From: Candidatus Babeliales bacterium
GTDB lineage: Bacteria > Babelota > Babeliae > Babelales > JBFXEV01
Reading direction: 5' to 3'
Length of the DNA: 64,000 bases
Assembly: GCA_050179755.1 (NCBI GenBank)
Contig: JBFXEV010000001.1
Location: 457,994-521,993 of the forward strand
Position 1 is the first letter of the stretch; the number at the start of each line of letters is the position of its first letter. Below the pieces are notes generated by a model. The model did not search any database. It worked only from the letters and a program-made list of their open reading frames with translations, and was not told the DNA's origin. The position numbers and the translations under genes are program-made. Shown here piece by piece: positions 1,023 to 51,330 of this stretch.

Positions 1023-1376
1023 CTATTTTATTGGTTCTTTTTGCATTTTCTGCTGCTCATGTTCATATCGAAGCTTAAGCCTATTATAATGCATTTCGTG
1101 ATTTTCTGTCGTAAAAAAATGACGTTTAACACCTGTCCCAGCTAGTGGGCCACTTACTACTGGCAAAAGCCTACTAAAATGATACTCGTTACTTCTTTTA
1201 CCAAAAGTAGCAACTTGTTCTTCACCATTTGGCAAAGTCAGGTTATATACAATTTTTTCGGAGTCTTCCGACCTACTAACACTTGGATTATGCTCCATAC
1301 TTTGTGTGCTATTAAAGCAAAAAACTAACGCAAATAAGTTGATATATATCAATTTTTTAGAATTTAACAATTTCAT
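1023..1376 (-). CDS. Secreted hypothetical protein
   Basis: Sec-like N-terminus ending STQS-ME; GAGG ribosome-binding site upstream. Confidence 0.7.
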   Translation of the reverse strand: MKLLNSKKLIYINLFALVFCFNSTQSMEHNPSVSRSEDSEKIVYNLTLPNGEEQVATFGKRSNEYHFSRLLPVVSGPLAGTGVKRHFFTTENHEMHYNRLKLRYEHEQQKMQKEPIK

Positions 1377-1390
1377 GGTTACCTCTTGAG

Positions 1391-2227
1391 TTATTTATAG
1401 ATTCCTAAAAGTTTATTCATTATACTATTTTTGAGAGCATCACGTAAAGCCACTCGTATGCTATTATCATCATAAGTGCCCATAGGTACAAACCTTGTAC
1501 TCGGAATTAATGGACTCAGTTTCGCTAACTTCTCATCAACAAGCGCATTAAATTCAGCCGTATTTATTATTCTACGTACGTCTTTAACCATTCCCGCTTT
1601 TTGTAAAGTGAGCGCAATATGCAAAAGACGTTTTTCTTCGTCAGGTGATAGCATAAAATTTCCAAGCATAGCTTTAACTGTTTCATCTGTGGCCAGATCT
1701 ACTGCCATCTTATCTGATGGTGTAACCACATATGGATTTGCGCCTCCTATGAGTAACGGTATGATAAGGTATTTTTTATTGCGCTGTGCTGCAATATGTA
1801 GAGCAGTTTCGCCCTTAGGTGTTAATACATTAGGATTTGCTCCCGCAGCAAGTATGGGAACAATGAGTTGAGGATACTCACGCGTTAGTGTAAACATATT
1901 TAACACGGGATAACCATTTTCAGGGTGTTTAAAGTTTACGTCAGCCCCACTTCGAATTAACAATGCTACTATTTCGGGTGCTTTGTTGCTATCTGTATGC
2001 ATCATTGCCAAAGTATATAATGGCGTGCTTCCCGATTTATTGATAGCATTAACATTAACAAGCTTAAGTAATCTTTCAGTTTCTGGTATATTTCCAGCAA
2101 ACGCTGCCTCGGTCAGTTGATCCGCTAAGCCCGTTTGTGCCGCTGGTTGTACCATTGGTAAAGCCGTGCTAACAATGAAGATTTGAACTATTAATAATAA
2201 TATAATTGATTGCTTCATTTGTTTCAT
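1391..2227 (-). CDS. Secreted ankyrin-repeat protein
   Basis: Signal peptide; GSTPLY, GADVN, GETALHIAA, GANP ankyrin motifs; helical C-terminal tail. Confidence 0.9.
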   Translation of the reverse strand: MKQMKQSIILLLIVQIFIVSTALPMVQPAAQTGLADQLTEAAFAGNIPETERLLKLVNVNAINKSGSTPLYTLAMMHTDSNKAPEIVALLIRSGADVNFKHPENGYPVLNMFTLTREYPQLIVPILAAGANPNVLTPKGETALHIAAQRNKKYLIIPLLIGGANPYVVTPSDKMAVDLATDETVKAMLGNFMLSPDEEKRLLHIALTLQKAGMVKDVRRIINTAEFNALVDEKLAKLSPLIPSTRFVPMGTYDDNSIRVALRDALKNSIMNKLLGIYK

Positions 2228-2416
2228 ACTATTCCTTCTTATCGATACTGATTCTCTCTAATTTAAGATTAGCTATTTATGAGGGGCAAAGTCAATACTA
2301 AAGGAGTCGAAAATCCCGGATTTACGGCCTTTTTCCACTCCTGCAACATTGATCTTATGAACAATAATTAGGTATGCTGATAGTAGAAAAATCAACTGCT
2401 GAAAGGCCTCAAAATC

Positions 2417-3724
2417 ATGTATATTAAAAAGTTACTATGCGTAATCAGTATAAGCATGCTAGCAATGCCACTATACGCCATGGAATCACCCAAAAAAAGT
2501 AATAAATCGGCATATGAAGATCTTGTGGCAGCAGTACAACATAATAACACAGAAAAAGTAATTACTCTTGTAGAGAATGGCATTGATAGTCTAAACAGAG
2601 AAGATCTCTTAAGAATGGCTGAGAGCAATGGAACTGAGCCAATGCTCAAGGCACTCACCACCACATTAGCACCTAGTGAAATCAAACGAGCTTTGCCCAC
2701 CGTTATTAAATCAATTTACGAACAATCCAAGATATCAATGGGCTCAGCGGCAACTGCAGGAATTATATTAAAACCTAAATCCGTGGAAAAAGTATATGAA
2801 TCATACAAAAGAGATGAAAACATAATAAAGGCGATTGCACAAGAAAAATATCAGCTAGCAAAAAAATATTTGCCTCAAGAATCTGATGAAGCAATAAAAA
2901 GTGCCATTCAAAATAGCATGAATAGAGTAATTGCCAAAGTGCCCGAAATACGTGAGGCATTAGATCATGCATTATTGACGGCTCTTGTTAACTGGAAACA
3001 GTACGATGATTATGGGAAAGTAGTAGAAAATGCTCAAACACTTAGAGGCGTACAAACATTACTCGCACTTGGTGCTGATCCAAACGCAATAGATATTTAT
3101 GGATTTGAAAAGGAGAAAATAGATACACCTCTTTTTGCAGCGCGGCGCAAAGGATTGCCAATAAGCATAACCTTACTCATTGAAGCAGGTGCAGATAAAA
3201 GTATGGATTTAAATGCGCCATTAAGAGCACTCCATGGAGACGCAAAGTATCGTGATAAGCAAGTTCTATTTGACAGTGTTATGCGTGTAAGCAAGGAACC
3301 TATAAAACGAGCATTCTTAACAGCAGTCAGCCCCAAAGATGTAAAGCATATCATTCCCGGCATTATTGCATTAACTAAACATTATAGAGAAGCAGGTTTG
3401 CCCAAAGACATGGGTAATTTAATAGCCTCACACATTGTGCCTGATTTATTGAATGAAAAACTAACTTTAGCAAAAAAATATGCTTATAAACCGATTCGCG
3501 AAGAAGCGGCATTACGTAACAGCATTCTTGAAAGCTTCAAAAGAGTTATGCGCAAATCAATAAATAAAATTCCCGCATTTATCACATTATCGACTGAAGA
3601 ATTAACCACGCCACTACCACAACCTGCTGCAGCGCAAGTTCAGCACCCTCAAGTACAACAAGCAGCGCCTGATTATTCACTCAGGGGGTGGGCTGCCTGG
3701 TTATTTGGGACTTCAAGTAAATAA
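2417..3724 (+). CDS. Secreted protein with ankyrin repeats and a duplicated helical domain
   Basis: Signal LYA-ME; LLALGADPN, TPLFAA, LLIEAGAD; two copies of an EK..LAKKY....I.[NE]S..RV block. Confidence 0.85.
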   Translation: MYIKKLLCVISISMLAMPLYAMESPKKSNKSAYEDLVAAVQHNNTEKVITLVENGIDSLNREDLLRMAESNGTEPMLKALTTTLAPSEIKRALPTVIKSIYEQSKISMGSAATAGIILKPKSVEKVYESYKRDENIIKAIAQEKYQLAKKYLPQESDEAIKSAIQNSMNRVIAKVPEIREALDHALLTALVNWKQYDDYGKVVENAQTLRGVQTLLALGADPNAIDIYGFEKEKIDTPLFAARRKGLPISITLLIEAGADKSMDLNAPLRALHGDAKYRDKQVLFDSVMRVSKEPIKRAFLTAVSPKDVKHIIPGIIALTKHYREAGLPKDMGNLIASHIVPDLLNEKLTLAKKYAYKPIREEAALRNSILESFKRVMRKSINKIPAFITLSTEELTTPLPQPAAAQVQHPQVQQAAPDYSLRGWAAWLFGTSSK

Positions 3725-3824: not shown

Positions 3825-4382
3825 ATGAATACCAATAAACTATTTCTATTAACATTCTCATATGCCCTCTTTTGTACCACATCTCTTTATTCCATGGAAA
3901 GACTGACTCTTCGCGGTGTATTAAAGGGCCACTACACGCCCACACCATTAGAAGATTTGCAAATGGTAGCCGAAATCATAGCACCAAAACCCTTCACACA
4001 AGATGAGCTTCAAGCGCACCAATGGCACGTGCCTGATACTATACAGAACCTATCTCACATGTTATGGCGTTCAAATGAATTAAGCCAAGATGCCAACGTG
4101 CAGCGACTTGCAGCTTGTCCCCAGGAATTAAAAGATGATACTTTAAAAGTATTTTTTAGAAAAAGCCTTCGGGGTATATCAGTACCACCATTACAAAAAT
4201 ATCAAATATCTTGTTGTCTTGCAGCGGGCGCTCAGCTTGCCGCCATAGAGAAAAAATTTACCGCTTGGTTAGCGCATAAAACTAAGTGCTCACAACCGGC
4301 AGTTCAAGATTGTTGGCAAAGCTTACCTCCTGATATACAAAAAGACCTGTTTGCCATCATCTTTCTATTTACAGAAAAATGA
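3825..4382 (+). CDS. Secreted hypothetical protein with C-terminal WxSLP motif
   Basis: Start moved to MNTNKLF (AAGG RBS, TGCTATACT upstream); signal LYS-ME; ends WQSLPPDIQKDLF. Confidence 0.75.
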   Translation: MNTNKLFLLTFSYALFCTTSLYSMERLTLRGVLKGHYTPTPLEDLQMVAEIIAPKPFTQDELQAHQWHVPDTIQNLSHMLWRSNELSQDANVQRLAACPQELKDDTLKVFFRKSLRGISVPPLQKYQISCCLAAGAQLAAIEKKFTAWLAHKTKCSQPAVQDCWQSLPPDIQKDLFAIIFLFTEK

Positions 4383-4391
4383 GAAGACCAA

Positions 4392-4937
4392 ATGAAAAAA
4401 CTCCTTCTTATTAGTTTACTACTCACAAATTTGGCCTCAGCTATGGAACTAGAACAATTACCGCTAGCTCCCTGTTTCCACCCGCAACGTCCACCCACGT
4501 TCAGAGAACTTTTTAATAACCCCAAAGAACAAGAAAAAGCATTGGCTGCTAAATGTAGACCTTTAATAAGAAAAGCCTGCTTACATGGTTGCATCAGCAG
4601 CGGCGCAGGAATTATAGCTATTCATAGCTTACTCACCTATCTGGGAGAAAACACTTCTTATGCACCTTTATTAGCTTGCGTAATGGCGAGCGGAGCTGCC
4701 GTAATAAGCGCTAATAGATGCATTAAATCGTACAGCAAAGCTATACAAATAAAAAAAGAAGATATATTTGAAAGCCCCAGATTAACACTATCTCTTCTTG
4801 GTCGCTTGGATTCTACAATAGATCCGCTCTATGATGAAAGCAATCTTTATTTTTATAGGCTGAAAAAAGCTCAACAGCGATCAACACGATCATGTAATCT
4901 TTTTGGCATTTTCTCATTTTTCTACAAAAAAAGATAA
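4392..4937 (+). CDS. Secreted/membrane hypothetical protein
   Basis: Signal ASA-ME; two internal hydrophobic segments. Confidence 0.75.
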   Translation: MKKLLLISLLLTNLASAMELEQLPLAPCFHPQRPPTFRELFNNPKEQEKALAAKCRPLIRKACLHGCISSGAGIIAIHSLLTYLGENTSYAPLLACVMASGAAVISANRCIKSYSKAIQIKKEDIFESPRLTLSLLGRLDSTIDPLYDESNLYFYRLKKAQQRSTRSCNLFGIFSFFYKKR

Positions 4938-4967: not shown

Positions 4968-5455
4968 CTATTGAAATATTCCAAAAATACTGCCACTCGT
5001 CACTTCAGCTTCTAGTAAAGATAATTGTTTTGCTTTTTCGGTAACCAGAGAACGGCGAGCATCATCAGTAATTTGTTGTGATAGCTTATGCATTATTGGA
5101 ATTAAGGCTTCCCGCTCACGAATCGCGGCCTCATAAGAAATCCAGCGAAAGCGACGTGGAATAAATTCTGGACGCCCGACGTACATAATGCTAGCCTTCA
5201 ATCCTTCCATATCCATTATAACTTGTAACAACTTATTCTCAGTTGCAGAGAATTCTGGCTCTGAAAAATAACATGGGTCAAATAATCTATCTTTGCGCTT
5301 TTCTACTTTTGGGGCAGTCTTCTTGGCATGAGCCAAGCTCAGACGCACATAATCAATTTTCGGGCTGTCTTTTTTAGACCGCTTAGTTGCATAGCTTCTG
5401 CTTGAAGAAACAAGCATAGAGTAATCGCAAGTACTAATGAAAATTTGTAAGACAC
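4968..5455 (-). CDS. Secreted hypothetical protein split by a -1 frameshift
   Basis: GTG at 5455 after AAAGGA RBS encodes MSYKFSLVLAITLCLFLQAEA-MQLSGLKK..., stop at 5339-5341. The long ORF 4968..5417 is in the -1 frame. A_AAA_AAG at 5369-5375. Confidence 0.65.
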
Positions 5456-6923: not shown

Positions 6924-7505
6924 GTGAAAATGGCTATAAAGTGTCTAGTATTCGTAACTTTACTACTATCAATACATCTTGCTTGGACTATGGAACAGGC
7001 AACATATAAATATACATGTACTGCCTCATGTAATAGTAACGTATTACATGAACTACACAACAAAATGACCATACCTGAACCTAACTCAGAAGCAGCTGGT
7101 TGTCTCTTAAAAGAAGTTCATATTTGGCATGATAAAGAAATATGTATATTAACTGGAGGGAAACCTTCAAAAGCTCTTAAAGTATTAGAAACAATGCGAG
7201 AGAATTACTTACAAACCAATTCTTGGTATCTGGGGACCACTGTATCTCATCTTCCAGAATTCAATTGCATTACCCCTTGCAGATTACTTATATGGATGGC
7301 AAATTTAATAATGAAAGATAACCAACCGTCAATAACTAATGAGAGCATAGAGTCAGCATGGTATGGACTACCAGACGCAATGCGATCACAAATTTTGTGC
7401 ACTATCAAACATCATAAAAGTGAGCTTACAGAAGCACAAAAAAAGAAACCCGCAACGTTTGATGCATTATGCATGTTTGATCCTTGTGGAAGACTTGATT
7501 TCTAA
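6924..7505 (+). CDS. Secreted hypothetical protein with WxGLP tail motif
   Basis: Signal AWT-ME; WMAN...WYGLPDAMRSQIL near the C-terminus. Confidence 0.7.
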   Translation: MKMAIKCLVFVTLLLSIHLAWTMEQATYKYTCTASCNSNVLHELHNKMTIPEPNSEAAGCLLKEVHIWHDKEICILTGGKPSKALKVLETMRENYLQTNSWYLGTTVSHLPEFNCITPCRLLIWMANLIMKDNQPSITNESIESAWYGLPDAMRSQILCTIKHHKSELTEAQKKKPATFDALCMFDPCGRLDF

Positions 7506-7597: not shown

Positions 7598-9133
7598 ATG
7601 CTCTCGCGCAAAAAACTATTCTTAAGCATCGCTCTTCTTTTTAGCAACACCACACTCATGTGCATGAAAAGATTAACTCATGATGCAGCAGAACGCAAAG
7701 AAGGAACTGGTGATCGCAAAACAGCTGCCATGTACGCCCAATTATTTAGAGCTTGTGAAACAGATATTGGAAAGTTACATGAAATTCTCCAAAATCCTCA
7801 TATTGATACAAACATAACAGACGGCGATAGAGGAACACCTTTATGTGTGGCAATCACAGAGCTGGGTTTACACGCGCCCTGGAAAAACGGTTACCAAGCA
7901 ATCATATGCCTTATTACACATCGTGCAGACATTACTATGCCAACAGCAAAAGGTGATACCCCGCTGCATCTTGCTATTAAATTAAAAAAGAAGGTATATC
8001 ACGTACCGCAAGAGGTTGTCTATCTCATTAACTATTTAATTGCCAAAGGTGCCAATGTTGCTGCACAAAATAGACAGGGCAAAACACCACTCCACGGGGC
8101 GGTAGCACTGTCATTTGATGCCGCAATACCAGTGCTCTTAAAAAGAAAAGCATCTCTCCATACATTTGCTCAACATCATACACCTTTACATCTTGCACTT
8201 ATGAAGGGGTCCCTACATACAGCAAAGCTTATTATTGATGAAGAATTAAAACAAAACCCCCTAGAGCATCTAGGCTACGTTTATTGTATACTGGGCGATA
8301 TGTTCAATGCATTAAACTTTGAACAAGCATCAGATTATAATCAGCACCAATCTCGATCTATTCTCACAGCAAAAATTATATATATGCTGCAGCACGGTTG
8401 GCCACTTGATGCCATGGGCCTTTCTAGAGAAGTTGATGGAACAGAACTTGTGATGCAGCATGTCTATAAACCATTTTTTTTAGCAATTCAACGTGGTGAT
8501 GTGCTTGAAGTTAAGCGGCGCCTTAATCAAAAAACGGGTCTCCACCACAATTTTTACCACTGGAATAATGATAATGAGTTAAGGTCTTGGATTAGAAATG
8601 CTGGCTTTGAAAATCATTGCACACCCCTCAGTCTTGCTTTGCATGCAAGAACATTTTCTTGCGACATGGTGCCTCTATTACTCGACAGAGGTGGCTTTAC
8701 ATCGCTCACAAGTGAATCAGTACGCCGAGCATATACTCATGGTCACCTTGAGCATGCACAGCTGCTTTTTAGCTATTTGCCTAAATCATTAATAAAAAGA
8801 TATTGGTACCACATTGCAATTTCACTTTTTCAAAACAGACACGTACGACATTTTTCACGCGACTTGCGCAATCTTTTGGCATTTTATTGCATACAAGAGG
8901 CTTGCATACAAGATAACCTCACTAGATGCAAGGAACTATTTGCGATAAGAACTCTTGTACATGATCATAATCGTGCCTATTATGTCAGAAAAGAGATCAC
9001 ACCACTTGAAAGCAATGACCCACACAGAAACAAACAATATCAGCATGATTATGATCACCTGTTAGATAATATACCGGTTTGGCAAAAGAATATTTATGAG
9101 GCGATTATGCAACATAATGTTAAAAAGGCATAA
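7598..9133 (+). CDS. Secreted ankyrin-repeat protein
   Basis: Signal peptide; GTPLCVA, GDTPLHLA, GKTPLHGA, HTPLHLA, CTPLSLA. Confidence 0.9.
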   Translation: MLSRKKLFLSIALLFSNTTLMCMKRLTHDAAERKEGTGDRKTAAMYAQLFRACETDIGKLHEILQNPHIDTNITDGDRGTPLCVAITELGLHAPWKNGYQAIICLITHRADITMPTAKGDTPLHLAIKLKKKVYHVPQEVVYLINYLIAKGANVAAQNRQGKTPLHGAVALSFDAAIPVLLKRKASLHTFAQHHTPLHLALMKGSLHTAKLIIDEELKQNPLEHLGYVYCILGDMFNALNFEQASDYNQHQSRSILTAKIIYMLQHGWPLDAMGLSREVDGTELVMQHVYKPFFLAIQRGDVLEVKRRLNQKTGLHHNFYHWNNDNELRSWIRNAGFENHCTPLSLALHARTFSCDMVPLLLDRGGFTSLTSESVRRAYTHGHLEHAQLLFSYLPKSLIKRYWYHIAISLFQNRHVRHFSRDLRNLLAFYCIQEACIQDNLTRCKELFAIRTLVHDHNRAYYVRKEITPLESNDPHRNKQYQHDYDHLLDNIPVWQKNIYEAIMQHNVKKA

Positions 9134-9259: not shown

Positions 9260-10699
9260 ATGATACGTACACGTTATCCACTCTTAGTTCTTTTAAGCAT
9301 ATACACGCAAACTGCATACAGTATGGAGCCCCCAAAACCCCAAACTCTCGGTCAAAAATTGGTTACAAGAACGCTTGCTGCACGAGCGCTACTCGCTACA
9401 CAAAAACAGCAACAATTGCTGGAAACCAAAGAATTGTCGCCCAAAAAACCAAAAACGCAAACACTCTATGAGCATTTTAAAATTCAGGGCGTTGCGCAGA
9501 TGCCTAACGAATTAAGAAACGGGCTCATTGCACCAAGAGTAGTGGGTGAAGGCGAATGGTGGTACGTCTATAAAAAGCTCAAACAGTCTTCTTCTAATAG
9601 CGATATAGAAGCTGTGGGATTTATTGGAGGTGCTGATCTTGTTGCCGTTGTAACAGATAATTTTCAAGCCCTGAGGGATCTCCCTTGTAAAAGAACTTTT
9701 TCTCTCAGGCAATTCGACGACAAACAAGTTGATTATGAGTTTAAAAGCGCTGAAGCTGTAGGGCTCAATGGCACAAATCCAAAGTTTGCCATCTCTGAAG
9801 GAGCTGGCCAAATAATTGCATTAGATAAAAATAATGAAGCGCAAATACTTACACTTGCAGATCCACAACAAAAAATACACTCTATTACTCTCCATGAAAC
9901 CGAACCAATAATCAGCGTAGTTACAAAAAATGGTCAGGCTTCATTATGGGATTTTATCACAAAAAATGTGCTCATAACACTACGTGCATACAAAATAACA
10001 TGCAATGCAAAAAAAACATGCATTACTACTATTCCCAGATACGGCGCAAACAAAGCGTACATCTATAATTTTGCGGGTAACAAACTATTCTCTCTAAAAC
10101 ATAATGCTCAAGTAAATGATGTAGCGTTTAATCCCACGCAAAACATAGTAGCCACTGCATCAAGCGATGGAACTGTCTGTTTATGGAATTTTAGAGGCGA
10201 AAAACTACAAACGCTTCTCCATGCAAGTGCTGTCGCACAAGTAAAATTTCCTGTAGGGGATAATGCGCTTGCCACTAGATTGAACAATGGCCAAATTATT
10301 TGCTTATGGAACGGCGAAGGGCAAAAAGTACGTACATTGAGCCATACTAAATGTGTCAGAGACATAGCAATACATCCGCAGGCACCCCTTTTTGCGAGTG
10401 CGACGCGAGGTGCTGTTTTTATATGGCTTATCCACAAACCCACGCTTGAGCAAGTTTTATTGCGGCAAGTTCTTAAAAATTGGTTTATTGAGCATATCAT
10501 TAAAAATGATTGCGTAGGAGGATTACATTTTATCAATTTTGATTGTACATCAGAGGAAGTGCTGCCAAACTGGATCGCAGGAACATTCAATTTAGATCAA
10601 GAAGAGATCTCAGGTATTTGGCAAACGATGCCAACGGAATTACGAGTAGCAATCTTTAAGTTGATTAAAAGGCGAGTAAAAGATAGAAATGCATTATGA
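9260..10699 (+). CDS. Secreted WD40-repeat protein (tandem paralog 1)
   Basis: VNDVAFNP..VATASSDGTVCLWN repeats; signal AYS-ME; PTLEQVLLRQ tail. Confidence 0.9.
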   Translation: MIRTRYPLLVLLSIYTQTAYSMEPPKPQTLGQKLVTRTLAARALLATQKQQQLLETKELSPKKPKTQTLYEHFKIQGVAQMPNELRNGLIAPRVVGEGEWWYVYKKLKQSSSNSDIEAVGFIGGADLVAVVTDNFQALRDLPCKRTFSLRQFDDKQVDYEFKSAEAVGLNGTNPKFAISEGAGQIIALDKNNEAQILTLADPQQKIHSITLHETEPIISVVTKNGQASLWDFITKNVLITLRAYKITCNAKKTCITTIPRYGANKAYIYNFAGNKLFSLKHNAQVNDVAFNPTQNIVATASSDGTVCLWNFRGEKLQTLLHASAVAQVKFPVGDNALATRLNNGQIICLWNGEGQKVRTLSHTKCVRDIAIHPQAPLFASATRGAVFIWLIHKPTLEQVLLRQVLKNWFIEHIIKNDCVGGLHFINFDCTSEEVLPNWIAGTFNLDQEEISGIWQTMPTELRVAIFKLIKRRVKDRNAL

Positions 10700-10791
10700 T
10701 TAAACAACTTGCATCACACAAGCTCTTGATCCACCGCCCTTATTAGTATTAAACTAGAAGCAACAAAAAAATAATACCTAAGGTAGATCAT

Positions 10792-12243
10792 GTGTTTAAA
10801 AAATACTCTCAGCTTAGCTTTTTAATCATCTTCTTGTCTACGCAATTAACTTATAACATGGATCAGGCACCACTCAACAAACCGCAAACGCTTGGCCAAA
10901 AACTCACAGCACTAACGCTTAGTGCACGTGAATGCAAGCGACAGCAAGCAGCATTAGCAGCACAGCAGCCAAAAACACTCTATGAGTATTTTGGCATGAC
11001 ACAGCTTGCAAGCGCCTCACGCGATGTAAAAGCACTCGTTGCAAAAGCACTTATTGGGAATGGTGGTTGGTGGTGGTTAAAACGACAAAGAATATATGAT
11101 GATCTTTCGGGGAAAATAGCATTCAGTGCAGACGGCAGACTATTTGCAATAGTTCACTACAACGTTGTAGATATATGCAATCTAACTTGCAACGAATCTG
11201 ACATTATATACTTAACTCATAAAGAGCCCGTTACTGCATTTGCATTTCACCCAACCAGCAGATCAATAGCTACAATAGAATCAAACATATGCACTATGTG
11301 GCATTGTACAGGCAAATTAATAAGTACGTTTAATACTGCCTGGCAGCATTCTTCACATATAGCATTTCATCCTACAAAAAATATAATCGCCATTGCAACG
11401 GCTTGCACCGTTTATTTATATGACTATACAGGTAAACGAATGCGAAAGATAAAACATACTACTTATGTTCAAGGAATTGATTTTAATGAAGATGGCGTCC
11501 TTGGCACTACGCCATGGGTTGGAGAGTCTCGTTTATGGAACGATGAGGGCAAACAAATACAAGCGTTGCCACATCGCGGGTTTAATAGTGCAATTGCATT
11601 ACACCCTAATAACAACATAATTGCCACAGCAGAATTAAACAGGGTACTTCTCTGGAATATGCAAGGAGAACAAACATGCACGTTGTTGCATAATGGTCGC
11701 ATTAACCGCGTTAAATTTAATAGTCAAAAAATGCACGTAGGAACCGCGTCATCAGATAAAACTGCTTGTTTATGGAATTTTCGTGGTACAAAGTTAAGAA
11801 CTTTTTATCATCTTAATCCGGTGCGTGGTATAGCGTTTCATCCTTGCGGCACGCTATTTGCAACTGCTGCGACAAAAAATACTGTATGCCTGTGGCAACA
11901 ACACGAACAACCCACATTAGAGCAAGTTTTATTACGGCAATTAATTAAAAACTGGGTGCTAACTTGCATTGCACAAAGAAAAAAGCCTCATTTTCCTTGC
12001 ACAAGCGCAGCAGAAGTGCCAACATGGATGGCTGTTCAATTTAATATACAAAAAGACGAATTAGAGCGCATATGGCAATCAATGAACGAGAGACTACAAA
12101 ACGCGATTGCTTATACGCTGAAAGGGCGCGCGCACCAGATTAGCGCATTATGCAAGCTGTATGAAGACCAAGACACAAAGCGTCAAATCATGAAACCATA
12201 TAACCCTACAGAACCAGTTCCTTTAGAAACGCTTGATTTATAA
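10792..12243 (+). CDS. Secreted WD40-repeat protein (tandem paralog 2)
   Basis: AFHP, TASSDKTACLWN repeats; shared QTLGQKL and PTLEQVLLRQ blocks. Confidence 0.9.
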   Translation: MFKKYSQLSFLIIFLSTQLTYNMDQAPLNKPQTLGQKLTALTLSARECKRQQAALAAQQPKTLYEYFGMTQLASASRDVKALVAKALIGNGGWWWLKRQRIYDDLSGKIAFSADGRLFAIVHYNVVDICNLTCNESDIIYLTHKEPVTAFAFHPTSRSIATIESNICTMWHCTGKLISTFNTAWQHSSHIAFHPTKNIIAIATACTVYLYDYTGKRMRKIKHTTYVQGIDFNEDGVLGTTPWVGESRLWNDEGKQIQALPHRGFNSAIALHPNNNIIATAELNRVLLWNMQGEQTCTLLHNGRINRVKFNSQKMHVGTASSDKTACLWNFRGTKLRTFYHLNPVRGIAFHPCGTLFATAATKNTVCLWQQHEQPTLEQVLLRQLIKNWVLTCIAQRKKPHFPCTSAAEVPTWMAVQFNIQKDELERIWQSMNERLQNAIAYTLKGRAHQISALCKLYEDQDTKRQIMKPYNPTEPVPLETLDL

Positions 12244-12345
12244 CAGCCTAACTAAACTCAAACAAAAATATCTATTGCTCTCACTATCTCTTTGCTATTA
12301 AACTAAGAGTAGTCTCCATAAAAATTGATCTATGATATGGTAACA

Positions 12346-13656
12346 ATGCTAAAAAAATATCAATTTCCAATTTTTTTATTGTACCTTCTATATGCTCCCA
12401 TACTATTTTCAATGGATGTAACTAATTTGGCAATAGCTAAATCTGCCACTAACCCACAAACACTCTATGAATTTTTTGGCATACCACCCACCTTCCCACG
12501 CGACTTGCAACCATTGCTTACAAAAGAAATAATTGGCGAAGGTGGCTGGTGGTATAAGGTTAAAAAATTGAAAATACCTTGCGATGAGAGCGTATGTTCT
12601 GTGCGCTTTTTTGCCGATTATGGGCTGGCCGTATTAACCAATAATCCGGTTAATTTCGAACGCAAAAGATATATTGCTTCCCTATCGCAATTAGACGCTA
12701 CACAAGTTGAGGAATCTGACAAATTTATGGCCGTAGAAGCAATGGATTGTAATTCACAGATTCCAAAAGTAGTTCTTGCTGATGGTGAAGGTAACGTAAT
12801 TGCATTGGATGAACAGTATCAGCCGCATATATTTATAGATGACATAAGAGAACGAGTCACGTCAATTGCGCTACATCCCGTTTTGCCGATAATTAGTATG
12901 GTAGCAGGGCAAAACCGCGCATCATTATGGGATTTCACGGCAAAAAAATTACTCATTACGCTCAATGCCAAAAAAATAACATGTGATTCAGAGCGCACCT
13001 GCATTGGTACATTACAAGGCACTAAAAAAGCATATTTACATAACTTTAACGGCGACAAAGTTGTTTCATTAAAACATGCTGATCATGTGCATGATCTAAC
13101 ATTCCACCCAACGCAAAGAATGGTTGCAACTGCCTCACAAGACAACACAGCTTGTTTGTGGAATTTTAAAGGTGAAAAGTTACATACACTTACGCACCCT
13201 TGGCATGTCTACCAAGCAAAATTTAATCATATAGGCACACTACTTGCCACCAGAGCAGATTCTTCTATCTATTTATGGAATTGCGAAGGCCAAAAACTAC
13301 GCACACTCAGCCATGCGCTACCTGTCTTAGATATAACATTGCATCAACAATTTGCACTCATTGCAAGTGTAACCAGAAAAAAACGTGTACATCTCTGGGC
13401 ATGGCATACCGATCCAACACTGCAGCAAGTTTTACTGCGGCAAGTTCTTAAAAATTGGCTACATTCGTTTATAGGTCGTTCTACATTCATTGATTTTAAA
13501 TGTACGTCAGAAGCGGGCATGCCACAATGGATGGCTACAGAATTTAATTTACAAGAAAAAGAACTGCAAGAGACTTGGCAATCAATGCCGCCAGAACTCT
13601 CGGCTGCAATATTTACTACCATTGCAAAGCGCATAGCTTATAGAAACCTGCTCTAA
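12346..13656 (+). CDS. Secreted WD40-repeat protein (tandem paralog 3)
   Basis: ATASQDNTACLWN; signal LFS-MD; closest to paralog 1. Confidence 0.9.
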   Translation: MLKKYQFPIFLLYLLYAPILFSMDVTNLAIAKSATNPQTLYEFFGIPPTFPRDLQPLLTKEIIGEGGWWYKVKKLKIPCDESVCSVRFFADYGLAVLTNNPVNFERKRYIASLSQLDATQVEESDKFMAVEAMDCNSQIPKVVLADGEGNVIALDEQYQPHIFIDDIRERVTSIALHPVLPIISMVAGQNRASLWDFTAKKLLITLNAKKITCDSERTCIGTLQGTKKAYLHNFNGDKVVSLKHADHVHDLTFHPTQRMVATASQDNTACLWNFKGEKLHTLTHPWHVYQAKFNHIGTLLATRADSSIYLWNCEGQKLRTLSHALPVLDITLHQQFALIASVTRKKRVHLWAWHTDPTLQQVLLRQVLKNWLHSFIGRSTFIDFKCTSEAGMPQWMATEFNLQEKELQETWQSMPPELSAAIFTTIAKRIAYRNLL

Positions 13657-13731
13657 ATATCTATTGCCCAAAACAGTATATTCATATTAAACTAGAAGCA
13701 ACAAAAAAACATATTAACTAAGGTAGATCAT

Positions 13732-15288
13732 ATGCTTAAAAAATACACTCAACTTAGCTTTTTAATCATTTTATTGTCTACACAATGTATTTATAGCATG
13801 GATCATGCAGCAACAGCTCCTGCCTCATCACAAACACTTGGTCAAAAACTCACTGCAATAACGCATGCTGCTCGAGCATCAAAAAGAACTCTCTGTGAAT
13901 CTGCCGGCATATCACAAAGGGAACGTACCCCCAATGAAAAGTCAGCACTAGCTCAAGCATTACTTGGCAAAAAACGTTGGTGGTACGAAACAACACGATT
14001 AGAGCACAGCGATTCTCCGCGCAAAATTAATTTTAATGCCTCAGGCACACGCATTGCGGCAGTAATAGACATCTCTGGCGATGATACAGACGATGAAACA
14101 CCTTCACCTCTTTGTGCATATCAGGGTTTGTCCTGGAACTTGGAAACAGAACAATTCAAACGAACTCAACCTCTGCAAGCAATGGGCCTTAACTCATCAG
14201 ATTTGCAGCAGGCAAACGCTCACGTGGTTATTGTAGATGATACTAACATATGCGTATTTGATAATGAGGGCATACTCTCTGCTGTAATGCCGCTTGTATA
14301 TGACAGTACAATCCATATAGTTGATCCGGATGAAACTATTGTGTTAAAGAATGAATGTCATAAAAAAGTCTGTGATGTTACCTTATATCCAAAACAACAC
14401 CTAGTAAGCCTAACCTTAAAAAAGGTAGGTGCTAGTTTATGGGATTATGCAAGCGGTAAAATGATCTTACATTTGCCCGGCGCGCATAAAATAGCATGTG
14501 ACCCCAAAGGCACTCTTATTGCAAGCATAGAAGATAATGCAAATCGCACGCGTGCAGCATATATACGCGATTACAATGGCACACTGCTGCATGCATTACA
14601 ACAATCTCCCGTGCATGGTGTAGATCGTAACGTATGGGACGTAGCTTTTAACCCTCACCAAAATATGATAGCCACTGCATATTCTGAGGGCGCGTATTTA
14701 TGGAATTATAAGGGTGAATTATTACGCACGTTAGTGCATTCAGCAGAGCCTCTTACGCACGTACTGTATGTAACCTTTAACCCCCAAGGTACCTTGTTAT
14801 GCACCTCAGCCGCGGATGGAACTGTGTGCTTATGGCACTGCCACCTAGGCGATAAATTGCATACGTTCTATAACGATTTAAGTCTCTGTGCTCCAGCATT
14901 TGCCCCGCAAGGGCATACGATCGCCACTGTATCTGGTGCCTATGTGCGTTTATGGCAACAATATGAACAACCCACGCTTGAGCAAGTTTTACTCTATAAA
15001 GTAATTCAACAATGGCTAATATCAGATCAAGCTGAAAAAGAGGCTACAAAATTACAACAAAATCCAGATATAGATCTACCAGCATGGCTTGCCGCTCATT
15101 GCAATTTGCATGAACATGAAGTGCGCCGCACATGGCACACACTGCCTGATAAAGTGCGTAAATCTCTTTTTATGACCATAACTGATCTGGCTGGATTTGG
15201 AAAAAAAAGTATGTATCAAGAAGTTAAGGACGCTGAAACGAGGAAGTGGCTAGAGTTCCTTTTTAAAATAGATGCGGATGATGATTAA
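13732..15288 (+). CDS. Secreted WD40-repeat protein (tandem paralog 4)
   Basis: VAFNP, TSAADGTVCLW; signal peptide nearly identical to paralog 2. Confidence 0.9.
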   Translation: MLKKYTQLSFLIILLSTQCIYSMDHAATAPASSQTLGQKLTAITHAARASKRTLCESAGISQRERTPNEKSALAQALLGKKRWWYETTRLEHSDSPRKINFNASGTRIAAVIDISGDDTDDETPSPLCAYQGLSWNLETEQFKRTQPLQAMGLNSSDLQQANAHVVIVDDTNICVFDNEGILSAVMPLVYDSTIHIVDPDETIVLKNECHKKVCDVTLYPKQHLVSLTLKKVGASLWDYASGKMILHLPGAHKIACDPKGTLIASIEDNANRTRAAYIRDYNGTLLHALQQSPVHGVDRNVWDVAFNPHQNMIATAYSEGAYLWNYKGELLRTLVHSAEPLTHVLYVTFNPQGTLLCTSAADGTVCLWHCHLGDKLHTFYNDLSLCAPAFAPQGHTIATVSGAYVRLWQQYEQPTLEQVLLYKVIQQWLISDQAEKEATKLQQNPDIDLPAWLAAHCNLHEHEVRRTWHTLPDKVRKSLFMTITDLAGFGKKSMYQEVKDAETRKWLEFLFKIDADDD

Positions 15289-18518: not shown

Positions 18519-19052
18519 ATGTTCAAACACGTAATACTTTTAACGAGTTTAATATCATGCATGCAATCACATGCCTGGGATTTTGCTAGCAATTCAAATC
18601 ATCAACCAAAAATAAATCGTTTTCAATGTAGCTCGGTCGATCATTACAAAACCACATTGCAAGAACAGATACGTAACAAAGATTGGCAAGCAGTGCTGCA
18701 GACAGAAAAGAACATGTGGGCATTTTTAGAAGATGAATCAAACAAACGAGGCCAAGCATTCTTGAATGAAGACACATATCACTTAAGAAATATTTTTTAT
18801 GGCGTGCTCACTTTTGCAGCACTCATAATTACGCCACGCACTCCAAGGCTACTTATAGGAACACCTGCGATTTCGCTGTCACTCTATAATGCCGTAAAAG
18901 GCATCACGGTAACTCCTGAAAACGTATATGCCGCAGAAAAGAAATGGCTTGCAAAAACCATGCATGGCATCGACCCACAGCTTCATGAATTTTTGCATCA
19001 CAATACTACTATAAGTGGTGAACATGTAACGCAAAAACATGGCGAGGATTAG
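18519..19052 (+). CDS. Secreted/membrane hypothetical protein
   Basis: AAGGAG RBS before MFKHVILL; signal SHA-WD; hydrophobic hairpin. Confidence 0.75.
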   Translation: MFKHVILLTSLISCMQSHAWDFASNSNHQPKINRFQCSSVDHYKTTLQEQIRNKDWQAVLQTEKNMWAFLEDESNKRGQAFLNEDTYHLRNIFYGVLTFAALIITPRTPRLLIGTPAISLSLYNAVKGITVTPENVYAAEKKWLAKTMHGIDPQLHEFLHHNTTISGEHVTQKHGED

Positions 19053-28354: not shown

Positions 28355-28761
28355 TGCAGCCCACTTGGCTGGTCTTGATTCATATCTTTTTCTACCATAG
28401 CAACATTCTCTTTAAGGCGCTCTTGCCATTGTTTATTAAATTCAGCATTATCAAGCTCTCGAGAAATACCTGTTGCAAACCCAGCTTGCAAGTTATCGCG
28501 TATTCTAGTGCGTATACGTTGCATTACCTCAAAAGAACTTGCGCAGTTTTCTTCTTTTTTAAGGCATTCCGCCAACACTTGCCACGCTTTTATATAGTCT
28601 TGCAGTAGCTGGTTACATTCATTATCAAAATTTCCCTGGCAGGTAGCTTGTTCAGATAACTCTATATTGTACTTTGAAAGCATAGGCATCTGAGAGGATT
28701 GGCCTTGAAGGGCATTGGTTATGGCAATGGCCACTACTAGGAATAATTTTTGCATATACAA
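28351..28761 (-). CDS. Secreted helical hypothetical protein
   Basis: Signal peptide, four Cys, 4-nt overlap with the next gene. Confidence 0.7.
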   Translation of the reverse strand: MYMQKLFLVVAIAITNALQGQSSQMPMLSKYNIELSEQATCQGNFDNECNQLLQDYIKAWQVLAECLKKEENCASSFEVMQRIRTRIRDNLQAGFATGISRELDNAEFNKQWQERLKENVAMVEKDMNQDQPSGLQ

Positions 28762-32671: not shown

Positions 32672-33064
32672 TTATTCAGTCACCGTAACCCTTTGCCCTG
32701 CACTATGGAGCATATGTAACGCAAAATCAGAAATTAAATAGCCGCCAATAAACATGCTTGTATACGGAGCATTGGCAATACTATCCCGCTTAAAAATCAA
32801 AGCCCACAGGGCAAGCGCACTAAAAAAAGGGCAATCAGCTACGGTTTTTAACACACTACTGCCAATGCGCGATAGTAACCCATCGTTATAAACTTTTACT
32901 GCAGATTCATAACCAAGTAGTCGTTCAATTTCTACCGATTGCCCTGGCTCAAGCTTTACCTGGCATATTTCCGTATCATCCGTATGCACATTAACAGTTA
33001 CCGTTTCTTCTTGAGCATGCGCTAAGCACATAACGCATAAAAGTAATCCAAATAATTTTTTCAT
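32672..33064 (-). CDS. Membrane/secreted hypothetical protein
   Basis: Signal AHA-QE; two hydrophobic segments. Confidence 0.7.
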   Translation of the reverse strand: MKKLFGLLLCVMCLAHAQEETVTVNVHTDDTEICQVKLEPGQSVEIERLLGYESAVKVYNDGLLSRIGSSVLKTVADCPFFSALALWALIFKRDSIANAPYTSMFIGGYLISDFALHMLHSAGQRVTVTE

Positions 33065-37223: not shown

Positions 37224-37925
37224 ATGGTGTGGTATATCATTTTTTTATGCATCGCAAGCAATGCACAGCAATGCATGGCAATGGAGCACTCTTGCTCGCA
37301 CGATAAAGCCAACATTGCTCAAAAAGAGCATCAAGCTTGCGCCAATGCTCTGGCGCGCAAACCAAAACCAACTAGAACTTTGGCCAAACCAAAAAAACAG
37401 CCTTTTAATGCTTCAGAACAAGATCCCAAAATACGCGTGGTAATTGAAATTTCAAGTATAGCAGACTATCAAAAAGGAGAAGTTGCCAATACTACTGCAA
37501 TCGATTTTTCAAGTAATAACCTTAGCGAGCTACCGCAGTTACATGGTTATACAAAGCTACAAGAAATTGACTGCTCTGGTAATGAATTCCGTATCGTGCC
37601 ACCACCTTTGTTTCAATGCTTGGGGTTACAGCGAATTTTTTTACAGCATAATCTTATAGAAATCATTCCAAGTGCAATACATATGTTCGGTCACCTTACC
37701 GTGCTTAATCTTGCCCATAATTATCTGAGAGAGTTACCAAATGAGCTTAGTAGATTACAAAAACTAAGAGATTTGAATGTCTCGCACAATGCAATAACTT
37801 CAATTCCTGCCTCTATTGCCCGTCTTGCGCAACTATTTCATTTTAATATCAAAAATAATCAGCTTACTCAAACTCTGGTTGACGCACTTAAACAAAAAAT
37901 GCCCAATACTACCATTACATGGTAA
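37224..37925 (+). CDS. Secreted leucine-rich-repeat protein
   Basis: 23-aa LxxLxLxxNxLxxLP repeats; signal CMA-ME. Confidence 0.9.
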   Translation: MVWYIIFLCIASNAQQCMAMEHSCSHDKANIAQKEHQACANALARKPKPTRTLAKPKKQPFNASEQDPKIRVVIEISSIADYQKGEVANTTAIDFSSNNLSELPQLHGYTKLQEIDCSGNEFRIVPPPLFQCLGLQRIFLQHNLIEIIPSAIHMFGHLTVLNLAHNYLRELPNELSRLQKLRDLNVSHNAITSIPASIARLAQLFHFNIKNNQLTQTLVDALKQKMPNTTITW

Positions 37926-48703: not shown

Positions 48704-48721
48704 TAGTACTGCTCCCTTTTC

Positions 48722-50482
48722 TTACTTTTCTAAAACCTTTAATCCATATTCACGTAGCTGCTTAGGATCGGCTTGGCTTGGAGCTTCCATCATCGCTTCT
48801 ATGCCACGCTGTGTTTTAGGAAACGCAATGACTTCACGGATGGACTTACTCCCTGTTAATAACATTAATACACGATCAAGGCCAAAAGCAATACCCCCGA
48901 GCGGAGGAAAGCCCAACTCCTGAGATTCCAACAAGAAGCCAAACTTATTTTGCACTTCTTCATTTGAAAGACCCAAGAAATCAAATACTTTTTGTTGCAT
49001 GTCGCGGTGATAAATACGAATCGAACCACCACCAAGCTCCACGCCGTTAAGCACTAAGTCATAAGCGCGCGCTTTCATGTCAGCAGGTTGTTGTGACTCC
49101 CAACCTTGTTGCGGCGCAGTAAACGGATGATGCACTGCAGACCAACTCTTGGTATCTTCGTTGTATTCTAAAAGTGGAAAATCTGTAACCCACAAGAAGT
49201 TAAACTGATCTTCAGGAATCATGTTTAGTTCTTTTGCAATATCAATGCGTAGTCTGCCAAGCAAAGTCCATGCAGCAGCATAAGGGCCTGCAATAACAAA
49301 AAGCGTATCTCCAACGGCAAGCGTGGGGATATTTTTTTGTAACCGAACAAAAAAGTCTGTTGGTAAAAATTTAGATACGGGCGAATCAACTTGGCCATTT
49401 TCTTGCACACGCATCCACAATAAACCTTTTGCACCAAATTGTTGCGCCTTATCAACCCAACTATCAAGTTCTGAGCGCGTAAATTTGTGCGCTGGCACAT
49501 GCACACAGCCCACTTTGCCACCGGCATCGAGCACCGCACGCATAAATTTTAATTCTGTACCTTCAAACGCCGATGAAATATCTTTTAAGCGTAAATCAAA
49601 ACGCGTATCCGGTTTGTCAGAACCATAATCTGCAAGCGCTTGATCAAACGTCATACGTGGCACTGCAACAGGAAACTGCTTATTCAGCACTTTTTTAAAG
49701 ACGTACGTATATAAACCTTCAACAAGTTTTTGAATGTCAGATTCATCAACAAATGCCATTTCCATATCAAGCTGTGTAAACTCTGGCTGACGATCAGCAC
49801 GCGTATCTTCGTCGCGGAAACAACGCGCAATCTGGAAATATTTATCAAGGCCAGCTGCCATTAACAACTGCTTATAAAGCTGAGGCGATTGCGGCAATGC
49901 ATATACGTGCCCCGCTTTAATGCGAGAAGGCACCAAGAATTCACGCGCACCTTCTGGCGTATTTTTGGTAAGTATGGGTGTTTCAATTTCATAAAAGCCT
50001 TGCTCATGCAAATATTCGCGCATAGCAAAACAAATTTTATCTCGCAAGATAAGCTTTTCTAGCATTTCAGGTCGGCGCAAATCAAGGTATCTATACTTAA
50101 GACGCACTTCTTCATCAACCGTTGCTGCTTCACTGAGCATAAATGGCAATGTTTTTGCTGTATTTAAAACTTTTAATTTAGTAACTTGCAGCTCAAAGGC
50201 ACCGGTAGGCAAATCTGCATTAACTGTTTCTGGGCTGCGTTTCACTACTTTGCCCTCTACTTCAATCACATACTCAGAACGTAACGTATGAGCCAAGTCA
50301 TGTGCTTCTTTAGAAATATCAGGATTAAACACAAGCTGCATGATACCCGCGCGGTCACGAATATCAATAAAAATAAGACCGCCATGGTCTCGGCGTTTAT
50401 TCACCCAACCGGCAAGTTGAATGGTTTTGCCAAGATCACCAGCTGACACGTTACCACAATACATTGTTCTATAAAGAGCCAT
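48722..50482 (-). CDS. aspS: Aspartate-tRNA ligase (possibly non-discriminating)
   Basis: RRDHGG, RLKYRYLDLRR, LPQSPQ, FRDED.RADRQPEFTQLD, HHPFT, GGIAFGLDR; GAD insert. Confidence 0.96.
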   Translation of the reverse strand: MALYRTMYCGNVSAGDLGKTIQLAGWVNKRRDHGGLIFIDIRDRAGIMQLVFNPDISKEAHDLAHTLRSEYVIEVEGKVVKRSPETVNADLPTGAFELQVTKLKVLNTAKTLPFMLSEAATVDEEVRLKYRYLDLRRPEMLEKLILRDKICFAMREYLHEQGFYEIETPILTKNTPEGAREFLVPSRIKAGHVYALPQSPQLYKQLLMAAGLDKYFQIARCFRDEDTRADRQPEFTQLDMEMAFVDESDIQKLVEGLYTYVFKKVLNKQFPVAVPRMTFDQALADYGSDKPDTRFDLRLKDISSAFEGTELKFMRAVLDAGGKVGCVHVPAHKFTRSELDSWVDKAQQFGAKGLLWMRVQENGQVDSPVSKFLPTDFFVRLQKNIPTLAVGDTLFVIAGPYAAAWTLLGRLRIDIAKELNMIPEDQFNFLWVTDFPLLEYNEDTKSWSAVHHPFTAPQQGWESQQPADMKARAYDLVLNGVELGGGSIRIYHRDMQQKVFDFLGLSNEEVQNKFGFLLESQELGFPPLGGIAFGLDRVLMLLTGSKSIREVIAFPKTQRGIEAMMEAPSQADPKQLREYGLKVLEK

Positions 50483-50595
50483 ACAAGTTCCTTGTTCACA
50501 CGAATACGAGCTGTGCTTGCGCGTTTTTAGAATATTAAGCACAAGCGTTTTAAGTCACCCGTCTAGTGTAGCACAGAGAGCCTAAAAGCTCTAGA

Positions 50596-51330
50596 TTAAA
50601 ATGGAGGAATGCCCGCGAATGGGTTTTTTTTATCAAGTACATTTTGCACTATCATGGTGCATGTGGGCTTATGACGCTCAATAAGCCCTTCTGGAATTAG
50701 TGCATCAACCAAGCTTTGAAGCTGCTGTATTTGGTCTGCTGGCGCATTCTGTTTTTTAAAGAAATTTAAGGTGTTAAGTGCCCCAGTATAAGCCGTATAA
50801 CTTGCAGCCATTTCTCTCCAATTAAGCAATTGTTGTGCGCGCTCAAGGCGATAGCCTGCAATTTCCGCAGCTGTTTTACCGTCTGTTGATTGGCCATACG
50901 TAGGTAATGCAAGCCCACTTAACAGATTCTTTAACGGGAAAAATCCCTTTTCAGGGTCTTTTACATAATGACTTTGCAATACTATCCAGTGAAAAAATGT
51001 TCTCTTAAGAAATGTATGAGTTGAGTCTATTTGCGCTCCAGTCAATAAAGCAGTGGCCACCAAATCAGATGAAAAAACTTCTTGAAGAATTGCTTCAAGC
51101 GGATACACCCCGCCTGTTCCTTGAATATTTTCGCTACTATTAAGCTCGGCTCCCTTTTCTACAAAAGGCCAAAGGCCCGTTATATCACCAGTTTGTGCAG
51201 CATGTTCCCATGCTTGATTAAAAGTTATTTGTTTAACTGCTGGCTGATTTGACGCACTATCCATGCCGCATGCAAAAGGCATCATGCCTAAAGAATAAGT
51301 TAGCACAGTTACTTGTAATGTTTTATTCAT
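50596..51330 (-). CDS. Secreted protein with degenerate ankyrin repeats
   Basis: Signal ACG-MD; VEKGAELN, YPLEA, LLTGAQID, DGKTAAEIA. Confidence 0.65.
   Translation of the reverse strand: MNKTLQVTVLTYSLGMMPFACGMDSASNQPAVKQITFNQAWEHAAQTGDITGLWPFVEKGAELNSSENIQGTGGVYPLEAILQEVFSSDLVATALLTGAQIDSTHTFLKRTFFHWIVLQSHYVKDPEKGFFPLKNLLSGLALPTYGQSTDGKTAAEIAGYRLERAQQLLNWREMAASYTAYTGALNTLNFFKKQNAPADQIQQLQSLVDALIPEGLIERHKPTCTMIVQNVLDKKNPFAGIPPF

Follow-up and report, generated by a model that had tools for sequence, protein, structure and literature searches.

What does it mean when, in one protein after another, the residue directly behind a secretion leader is a methionine? This question is raised by 64,000 nucleotides of DNA from Candidatus Babeliales bacterium (assembly GCA_050179755.1, contig JBFXEV010000001.1, positions 457,994 to 521,993 of the forward strand), a stretch that is called the window below. 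Dependentiae are widespread and mostly uncultured protist parasites, and their effectors and envelope proteins have so far been indistinguishable. In the window, about 23 of the 31 leader proteins carry a Met at the predicted cut, whatever their domain type. Met is enriched after these leaders beyond chance, and sequence comparison indicates that selection on the amino acid maintains it. The rule is conserved and apparently undescribed. The safest statement is that it is a selected lineage rule, by which the new N-terminus of most exported non-envelope proteins is a Met or has one no more than a few residues away.

Methionine behind Sec-type leaders

We curated 23 leader-Met junctions in the window (Table 1; the arrow marks the predicted cut). 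Twenty of them had been listed in a preliminary description of this DNA, which located them by the start codons of their open reading frames (ORFs), and all 20 are present letter for letter in the sequence; three were added. One of the three belongs to the RING-finger protein, which had been described as lacking the Met and in fact reads THN↓MQ, with TFA↓T as an alternative canonical site. In every ORF of the 23, the n-region is positively charged and leads into a hydrophobic core, behind which come a small residue and Met, and the leaders are 17-26 aa long. Position -1 is Ala in nine, Ser in five, Asn in three, Gly and Cys in two each and Thr and Pro in one each (small in 19/23), position -3 is A, L, I, V, T, S, C or G in 23/23, and position -2 is mostly large (Tyr in six). 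Because the -3/-1 rule of von Heijne calls for small uncharged residues at these two positions, the best-fitting register is a cut directly before the Met. The anatomy is that of type I signal peptides, which have a hydrophobic core of about 7-15 residues and a total length of about 17-30 aa, and 20 of the 23 passed our hydrophobicity detector, while two fell under its cut-off and one ORF was too short. For the ankyrin protein at 51469-52083, either the cut is AGC↓ME or the protein is a lipoprotein cut before the Cys with Met at +2.

Two other leader types were ruled out. No twin arginine, as a Tat signal would have, occurs in any of the 23 n-regions. Type IV prepilin leaders are short, basic and end in Gly; the cut in them exposes Phe or Met, and the hydrophobic segment lies behind it, with Glu at +5. 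In the present proteins the hydrophobic segment precedes the Met, and polar or charged residues follow it, which excludes a prepilin or pseudopilin leader. Separately, one of the genes appears broken: at 4968-5455 (minus strand) the leader and the following MQLSGLKK run into a stop, and the continuation lies in another frame as ORF 4968-5417. A frameshift, a pseudogene or an error in sequencing may account for this.

The frequency of the Met was measured with a home-made detector, not SignalP, which takes ORFs of at least 100 aa having an 8-residue hydrophobic core near the start codon and a non-negative n-region. It was run identically on the window, on one Babeliales locus (L001) and on 79 unrelated bacterial loci (L002-L080). 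These loci had been gathered by ClpB, which is 68% identical in L001, a Babeliales metagenome-assembled genome, and at most 58% identical in the 79 others, from other phyla. The main measure was a Met 2-12 residues past the hydrophobic core with allowed residues at -1 and -3. Such a cleavage-compatible Met was found in 22 of 33 leader-like N-termini of the window versus 11 of 201 in the unrelated loci (Fisher p = 5e-15), which agrees with the earlier statement that Met is uncommon at +1 elsewhere. The 22 cases comprise 20 curated junctions, one ambiguous case (18468, ISC↓MQ) and one SecG false positive; most of the 11 control positives are, by appearance, membrane or cytoplasmic proteins. Looser or different measures gave the same picture: any Met in the stretch 2-12 residues past the core occurred in 25/33 versus 32/201 (p = 1.3e-11), and Met right before the first charged residue in 14/33 versus 5/201 (p = 5e-10). 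Low-GC controls alone gave 5/55. Among 19 residues tested, Met alone was enriched in the window, with K and G nominally depleted (p = 0.018 and p = 0.004, respectively), and the internal Met frequency was ordinary (2.0% in the window, 1.8% in the controls). A rule-based predictor placed 32 sites in the window and put Met at +1 in 12 and Gln in three. As a further control, a profile of eight ankyrin proteins was used, which was swamped by generic ankyrins; among the best 120 of its 4197 matches, 5 of 68 leader-bearing generic ankyrin proteins from other organisms had the Met.

That the Met might simply be the true translation start had been raised in the preliminary description, and it is not supported. 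A Shine-Dalgarno (SD)-like tetramer is found 4-18 bases ahead of the upstream start in 16 of the 23 genes and ahead of the post-leader ATG in two, the latter being near the background of 28 in 323 internal in-frame ATGs; 11 of 19 other genes of the window have one before their start. Five of the 23 genes start with GTG, and the post-leader position is never GTG or TTG, while the Ala codons at -1 include GCC, GCT, GCA and GCG. This codon variety and the absence of GTG and TTG at the post-leader site therefore point to a constraint on the amino acid, not on DNA or initiation. A DNA-level motif around the ATG was ruled out, as the flanking codons vary at synonymous positions, and the three +1 Val residues of leaders without Met are not hidden GTG starts, their codons being GTC, GTC and GTA.

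The Met is absent or ambiguous in eight leader proteins, namely the two secretins, the putative outer-membrane protein at 53946-56090, two small ankyrins and the proteins at 32672-33064, 29857-30381 and 18519-19052. The first five had been named correctly as exceptions (junctions in Table 1). The accompanying claim that envelope residents lack the Met is borne out by 0 of 3 envelope proteins versus 23 of 27 other leader proteins (Fisher p = 0.009), a comparison in which two of the three are paralogous secretins and the third is assigned to the outer membrane by its C-terminal Phe only, there being no family match and an unusable AlphaFold2 model (predicted local distance difference test score, 31). 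As a separate observation, the adjacent genes in 29776-31552 (plus strand) share an almost identical leader (MEDLMKNKSILMLS...), the first ending NAAC↓SH without Met and the second, the RING gene, THN↓MQ. The pair has the look of a tandem duplication in which one copy has the Met and the other does not.

Conservation in paralogues and in a large protein family

Conservation of the Met can be followed among paralogues. In the four tandem WD40 proteins, which are 32-46% identical, M1 and M22 are the sole invariant columns among the first 40. The proteins encoded at 20922-22616 and 22714-25317 are 44% identical over 217 residues and have the junction A↓M[R/K]RATQQLL in common. A word-based search with the former returned no match but itself, and a profile of the WD40 family matched the copies of its own genome and generic WD40 proteins. 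A HMMER search with the latter over 1.84 billion cluster representatives gave 433 matches at E ≤ 0.001, of which 223 had E ≤ 1e-10. These 433 relatives have a C-terminal domain of about 300 aa in common (residues ~540-866 of the query) and form a large unnamed family. No PDB sequence match, usable Atlas look-alike or NCBIfam match was found for it, and Pfam gave nothing above threshold on 12 family members.

We then counted the junctions in 149 new proteins among the best 150 of the 433 matches, each less than 50% identical to the others. Leader-like N-termini were present in 104, and 58 of these had a rule-compatible Met (p = 9e-23 versus controls). The residues before the 58 junctions were A24, G18, P6, S5, T3 and C2 at -1 and mainly L17, A15, T10 and I7 at -3. 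Over the 30 residues past the Met, pairs of members share a median of 7% identity. In a FastTree phylogeny of the common C-terminal domain (134 rows), the 58 Met and 47 non-Met leaders were distributed across all major branches. Parsimony required 24 changes, at least 13 of which were forced by well-supported branches, whereas shuffled labels required 34.7 on average and none of 500 shuffles was as low; the trait is therefore clustered yet repeatedly lost or gained. In one close pair, P0140 reads G↓MRRT and P0141 reads G↓TGRA, the two differing at the Met residue only. Two members, P0134 (the closest homologue) and P0211, start exactly at the Met and have no leader. These may be gene-calling artefacts, and that such artefacts occur is suggested by P0210, which starts inside a c-region. 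The retention of Met across so diverse a family argues for a function.

The residues following the Met are less uniform. In the window, position +2 is E8, D4, Q2, K4, R1, H1, V1, A1 and L1, and in the family it is R8, F8, N7, K6, L6, W5, G5 and others. The preliminary description had pointed to Met-Glu and Met-Asp termini as NatB substrates; this holds for the window, where 14/23 are of the NatB type (Met followed by Asp, Glu, Asn or Gln), and fails in the family, where 8/58 are. It had also argued that Met is a stabilising residue. In eukaryotes, however, Met followed by a bulky hydrophobic residue is an Arg/N-degron if unacetylated, and such ends (Met then L, I, F, Y or W) occur in 20/58 family junctions versus 1/23 in the window, so that the argument is weak. 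A different feature was found in the family: in 34 of 58 Met members, versus 6 of 43 non-Met members and 5 of 188 controls, the first 25 residues counted from the Met are basic and include no Asp or Glu. Mitochondrial presequences are rich in Arg and Lys and free of Asp and Glu over about 20-30 residues, and family starts such as MLSQVSRRL, MFARRVSRL and MKRALVPIARSL are presequence-like by composition.

Possible roles of the methionine

The reading that we favour, and that we regard as quite possible if not yet probable, is that a Sec leader stands before a complete Met-first protein and is cut off at the junction, so that the exported protein would show an N-terminus in the style of its eukaryotic host. 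The N-termini would thus have two parts, a classical Sec-type leader with the upstream start and, directly behind it, a complete protein with its own Met. Type I signal peptidase, or a relative, would cut at the junction, and the exported ankyrin, WD40, leucine-rich-repeat (LRR), RING and orphan proteins would begin with Met. They would act in the host cytoplasm, whose N-terminal machinery reads Met-first ends as targeting presequences or through Met-aminopeptidase and N-acetyltransferases, and the leader and the Met-first end would work like a bipartite targeting signal. The exact cut, the export beyond the periplasm and the reading by the host are steps that we infer. Secretion of these proteins by a type II secretion system (T2SS) is conceivable purely by extrapolation from the neighbouring gspC-gspD genes. 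Effectors injected by plant pathogens offer a parallel, as their own Met-Gly ends are myristoylated by host enzymes. The favoured reading is supported by the presequence-like starts in the family and by a precedent in diatom transit peptides, which is described below. In addition, Chromulinavorax, a cultured member of Dependentiae, is described in the consulted part of its report as having the host mitochondrion reorganised around the bacterium (PMC6561590).

Several observations weigh against this reading. The cut sites are predicted, the leader detector is home-made, and family members were counted irrespective of organism. Asn (three) and Pro (one) stand at -1 in 4/23 window junctions, and Pro in 6/58 family junctions, residues that a canonical signal peptidase I should not accept there. 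In several proteins a canonical site lies 2-3 residues upstream (e.g. STA↓LPM), so that the Met may be near, not at, the new end. Basic residues directly past the leader hinder Sec export in E. coli, and we know of no need of host import receptors for Met itself. The 20 family ends with a bulky hydrophobic residue after Met would be degrons if unacetylated. Presequence-like starts occur in only 3/23 window proteins, and mitochondrial targeting therefore cannot be the general reason for the Met. The Met is missing from two small ankyrins and from other proteins that are likely to be secreted. As a flag for effectors, which the preliminary description proposed, it is not clean, the Met-less leaders being those of the two ankyrins and of three uncharacterised proteins. 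Finally, L001, the sole related Babeliales locus compared, had a cleavage-compatible Met in 0/10. The enrichment expected across related genomes thus holds for the window, which is far above the controls, and not for this relative, and the rule is not phylum-wide.

Could the Met instead be read by the bacterium? This is possible though doubtful. The P1' Met would then be a sorting or processing mark, recognised by a leader peptidase of its own or by a receptor in the periplasm that feeds vesicles or the secretin system, and it would separate host-directed cargo from envelope residents as the lipobox Cys does for lipoproteins. The leader classes do differ before the cut, with Ala at -1 in 7/7 non-Met leaders versus 9/23 Met leaders (p = 0.007) and with Asn, Pro, Cys and Thr tolerated at -1 in the Met class. 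The family junctions, with Gly at -1 in 18/58 and Leu at -3 in 17/58, resemble a lipobox of the form [L/A/T]-x-[A/G]↓M, the Met is missing from both secretins and from the putative outer-membrane protein, and Met alone is conserved, whatever comes next. A single residue is nevertheless a thin signal, there is no candidate peptidase or receptor in the window, some likely secreted ankyrins lack the Met, and to our knowledge no linear signal for type II secretion has been described. In a narrower and rather unlikely version, Dependentiae would have a second, so far undescribed class of Sec leader, a "Met-box" of the form [L/A/T]-x-[A/G/S]↓M, whose P1' Met is recognised in a dedicated processing or sorting step by which proteins meant for the host leave the periplasm. 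If true, cargo of a secretin-based system would for the first time have a linear N-terminal signal, and sequence would suffice to read the effectors of an uncultured phylum.

The remaining explanations give the Met no part in sorting or in the host. An unlikely one is a general lineage preference for +1 Met in all signal-peptidase-I substrates, similar to that for Gln in Bacteroidetes and unrelated to effectors, with old, slow-evolving envelope proteins as the exceptions. The compliance of leader proteins of any domain type and the smallness of the envelope sample (three proteins, two of them paralogous) speak for it, and the Bacteroidetes Q-rule, predicted for 59-77% of sites in Porphyromonas species in the portion of PMC5837995 consulted, shows that lineage-wide +1 rules exist. 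However, the Q-rule covers all compartments including the outer membrane, while here both secretins lack Met and the contrast of 0/3 with 23/27 remains; the c-region also differs in Met-less leaders. We consider it improbable that the Met is a neutral relic, that is, an old initiator left unmutated so far after leaders had been added by 5' extension before existing starts. The leaderless P0134 and P0211, the diatom precedent and AT-rich upstream DNA, which would readily give peptides rich in Lys and in Leu, Ile or Phe, are what such an origin would predict, but the Met persists across paralogues and while the neighbouring 30 residues are at 7% identity, it keeps a constant register with the -3 and -1 residues, there are no GTG or TTG relics although 5/23 genes start with GTG, and the leaderless relatives may be miscalled genes. 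Least credible of all is that the Met is a true or second start, with an upstream leader that either goes untranslated or belongs to another isoform. An ATG does stand at every junction, and gene callers chose it in a few relatives; against this are the distribution of SD-like motifs given above, the 23 open in-frame extensions with n-, h- and c-regions, which are beyond chance in stop-codon-rich DNA, and the conservation of the leaders among paralogues.

If the one-residue junction rule is true, it would provide a sequence-only handle on the host-directed set of proteins. It would also point to an unknown step that reads an N-terminal Met, in the bacterium or in the host. Direct tests of mitochondrial targeting by these parasites become possible through the presequence-like ends of one large family.

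Gene content of the window and comparison with known systems

The window has a G+C content of 39-42% over its 64 kb and contains the housekeeping genes uvrC, clpB, tpiA, secG, mlaEF, eno, aspS, infB and nusA, together with a gspC-gspD-pilM-...-gspD cluster and many ankyrin, WD40, LRR, RING and orphan genes (Table 1). An NCBIfam scan of 20 window proteins gave names for gspC and gspD only, and both secretins were under the cut-off of the GspD model (285 and 245 bits versus 351). The cluster matches the two gspD copies described as a trait of all TM6 genomes in the consulted part of PMC4776705; together with the ClpB comparison, it places the organism in Dependentiae (TM6), probably in Babeliales. 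One cultured Dependentiae member is reported, in the consulted part of PMC6561590, to have signal peptides on about 44% of its coding sequences. Other features of the window are a likely toxin-antitoxin pair in the effector-rich region, consisting of a Gp49/HigB-like gene (29185-29523, minus strand) that overlaps a helix-turn-helix antitoxin-like gene (28862-29188, minus strand); a leaderless ChaB-domain protein (20452-20874, plus strand) between two leader-Met genes, an unusual domain for such a setting; and a fifth WD40-repeat gene (63170-64000, minus strand), which runs past the window end and whose N-terminus lies outside it. The related locus L001 has a G+C content of 31.8%, while that of the window is about 40%. 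Asn-Cys is a frequent ending of the L001 leaders, and four of them belong to collagen-like paralogues: the paralogues at 494-13879 carry Gly-X-Y repeats (GATGATG...) and have leaders ending LVNC, LLNC and FFNC, none with a post-leader Met.

Table 1. Leader-bearing proteins and secretion genes of the window, with predicted junctions (↓) and the position of the post-leader Met codon
Feature	Position	Strand	Leader (aa)	Junction	Met codon	Remarks
ORFan	1023..1376	-	26	TQS↓ME	1298	no Pfam/NCBIfam match
Ankyrin protein	1391..2227	-	24	ALP↓MV	2155	Pro at -1; canonical alternative STA↓LP
Weak ankyrin protein	2417..3724	+	21	LYA↓ME	2480	
ORFan	3825..4382	+	23	LYS↓ME	3894	under detector hydrophobicity cut-off
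ORFan	4392..4937	+	17	ASA↓ME	4443	
Probably frameshifted gene	4968..5455	-	21	AEA↓MQ	5392	38-aa ORF 5339-5455
ORFan	6924..7505	+	22	AWT↓ME	6990	
Ankyrin protein	7598..9133	+	22	LMC↓MK	7664	
WD40 paralogue 1	9260-10699	+		AYS↓ME	9323	tandem array of four (9260..15288)
WD40 paralogue 2	10792-12243	+		TYN↓MD	10858	tandem array
WD40 paralogue 3	12346-13656	+		LFS↓MD	12412	tandem array
WD40 paralogue 4	13732-15288	+		IYS↓MD	13798	tandem array
Leader protein, function unassigned	18519..19052	+		SHA↓WD or ISC↓MQ		ambiguous; SHA↓WD canonical, ISC↓MQ with very short leader fits Met rule
Ankyrin protein	19053..20165	-	21	LDA↓MK	20102	
ORFan paralogue	20922..22616	-	21	LQA↓MRRATQQLL	22553	basic, acid-free after Met
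867-aa paralogue	22714..25317	-	22	IHA↓MKRATQQLL	25251	large unnamed family
ORFan	25553..26089	+	23	STA↓MH	25622	
ORFan	26086..27534	-	24	VLA↓MK	27462	
ORFan (added)	27896..28354	-	22	GYN↓MA	28288	Asn at -1
Ambiguous case	28351..28761	-		QGQSSQ↓MPM		Gln at -1
Leader protein, no Met	29857..30381	+		NAAC↓SH		leader near copy of RING protein's (MKNKSILMLS...)
RING-finger protein (added)	30416..31552	+	20	THN↓MQ	30476	canonical alternative TFA↓TH
Ankyrin protein	31587..32645	-	19	IIG↓ML	32588	
Small leader protein, no Met	32672..33064	-		AHA↓QE		
Small ankyrin, no Met	36189-36662	+		IQA↓VE		
Small ankyrin, no Met	36714-37169	+		AHA↓EY		
Leucine-rich-repeat protein	37224..37925	+	19	CMA↓ME	37281	
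gspC	39039-40193	+				upstream of GspD; NCBIfam match
Secretin cluster	39039-47497	+				order gspC, gspD, pilM/gspL-like, small membrane protein (44383-44958), second gspD
Secretin GspD, no Met	40209-42761	+		LHA↓VI		beside pilM-like genes
Secretin GspD2, no Met	44963-47497	+		TCA↓VV		paralogue of GspD
ORFan	50596..51330	-	22	ACG↓MD	51264	under detector hydrophobicity cut-off
Ankyrin protein (added)	51469..52083	-		LAGC then ME	52026	
Putative outer-membrane protein, no Met	53946..56090	-		AIA↓GE		714 aa; C-terminus ...EAKF

Among known systems, the lipobox, L-[A/S]-[G/A]↓C with Cys at +1, resembles the present junctions in its invariant sulphur-containing +1 residue, in Leu or Ala at -3 and Ala or Gly at -1, and in defining a separate leader class within one cell. 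It differs in that Met cannot be diacylated on sulphur and that -2 is polar or aromatic here (Gln, His, Asn, Tyr). A true lipobox (LAGC) occurs only at 51469-52083, where Met follows the Cys, while the other 22 junctions have Met and no +1 Cys. The Plasmodium PEXEL motif is alike in that a cleavage in the secretory pathway exposes a defined N-terminus that marks host-destined proteins, whereas it belongs to a eukaryotic parasite, uses another protease and motif, and yields an acetylated end. Bipartite signals of complex plastids also place a leader directly before a second N-terminal signal, and the first residue past the cleavage is informative; at the diatom signal-peptide junction, it is Phe at +1. 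For Thalassiosira pseudonana, the consulted part of PMC3774753 describes transit-peptide cleavage that most frequently leaves Met, Ala or Ser at the new end and acidic residues behind it, followed by the action of a plastid Met-aminopeptidase. Those, however, are eukaryotic proteins crossing organelle membranes of their own cell, whereas bacterial export to another organism would be involved here, and a presequence-like second part is found here in one family (34/58) and in 3/23 window proteins.

No Met rule is described in the consulted parts of the Chromulinavorax paper (PMC6561590), the Babela paper or the TM6 comparative paper (PMC4776705), main texts without supplements, nor in the open full-text literature, subscription journals lying outside this search; the word "methionine" does not appear in the consulted part of the Q-rule paper (PMC5837995). 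The closest counterpart is this Bacteroidetes Q-rule, in which Gln at +1 of signal peptidase I substrates is cyclised to pyroglutamate. The figure of 59-77% given above refers to automatic predictions, and the same part of PMC5837995 extends the rule to all compartments including the outer membrane, while protein stability is named in the title of PMC10653852. The two rules differ in the residue (one window leader, AHA↓QE, has Gln), in their reach, since the secretins and the putative outer-membrane protein lack Met here (0/3 versus 23/27, a small sample), and in the glutaminyl cyclase partner, for which the window has no candidate modifying enzyme as a counterpart. They also belong to different phyla, and the Met rule is absent from the sole related Babeliales locus. 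Both are nevertheless lineage-restricted and concern one residue directly after a Sec leader, most leader proteins comply with them, and in both the function would lie in the new N-terminus. The Met rule would make this the second lineage, after Bacteroidetes, to impose a residue of its own at +1 of signal peptidase I substrates, a position that is permissive elsewhere.

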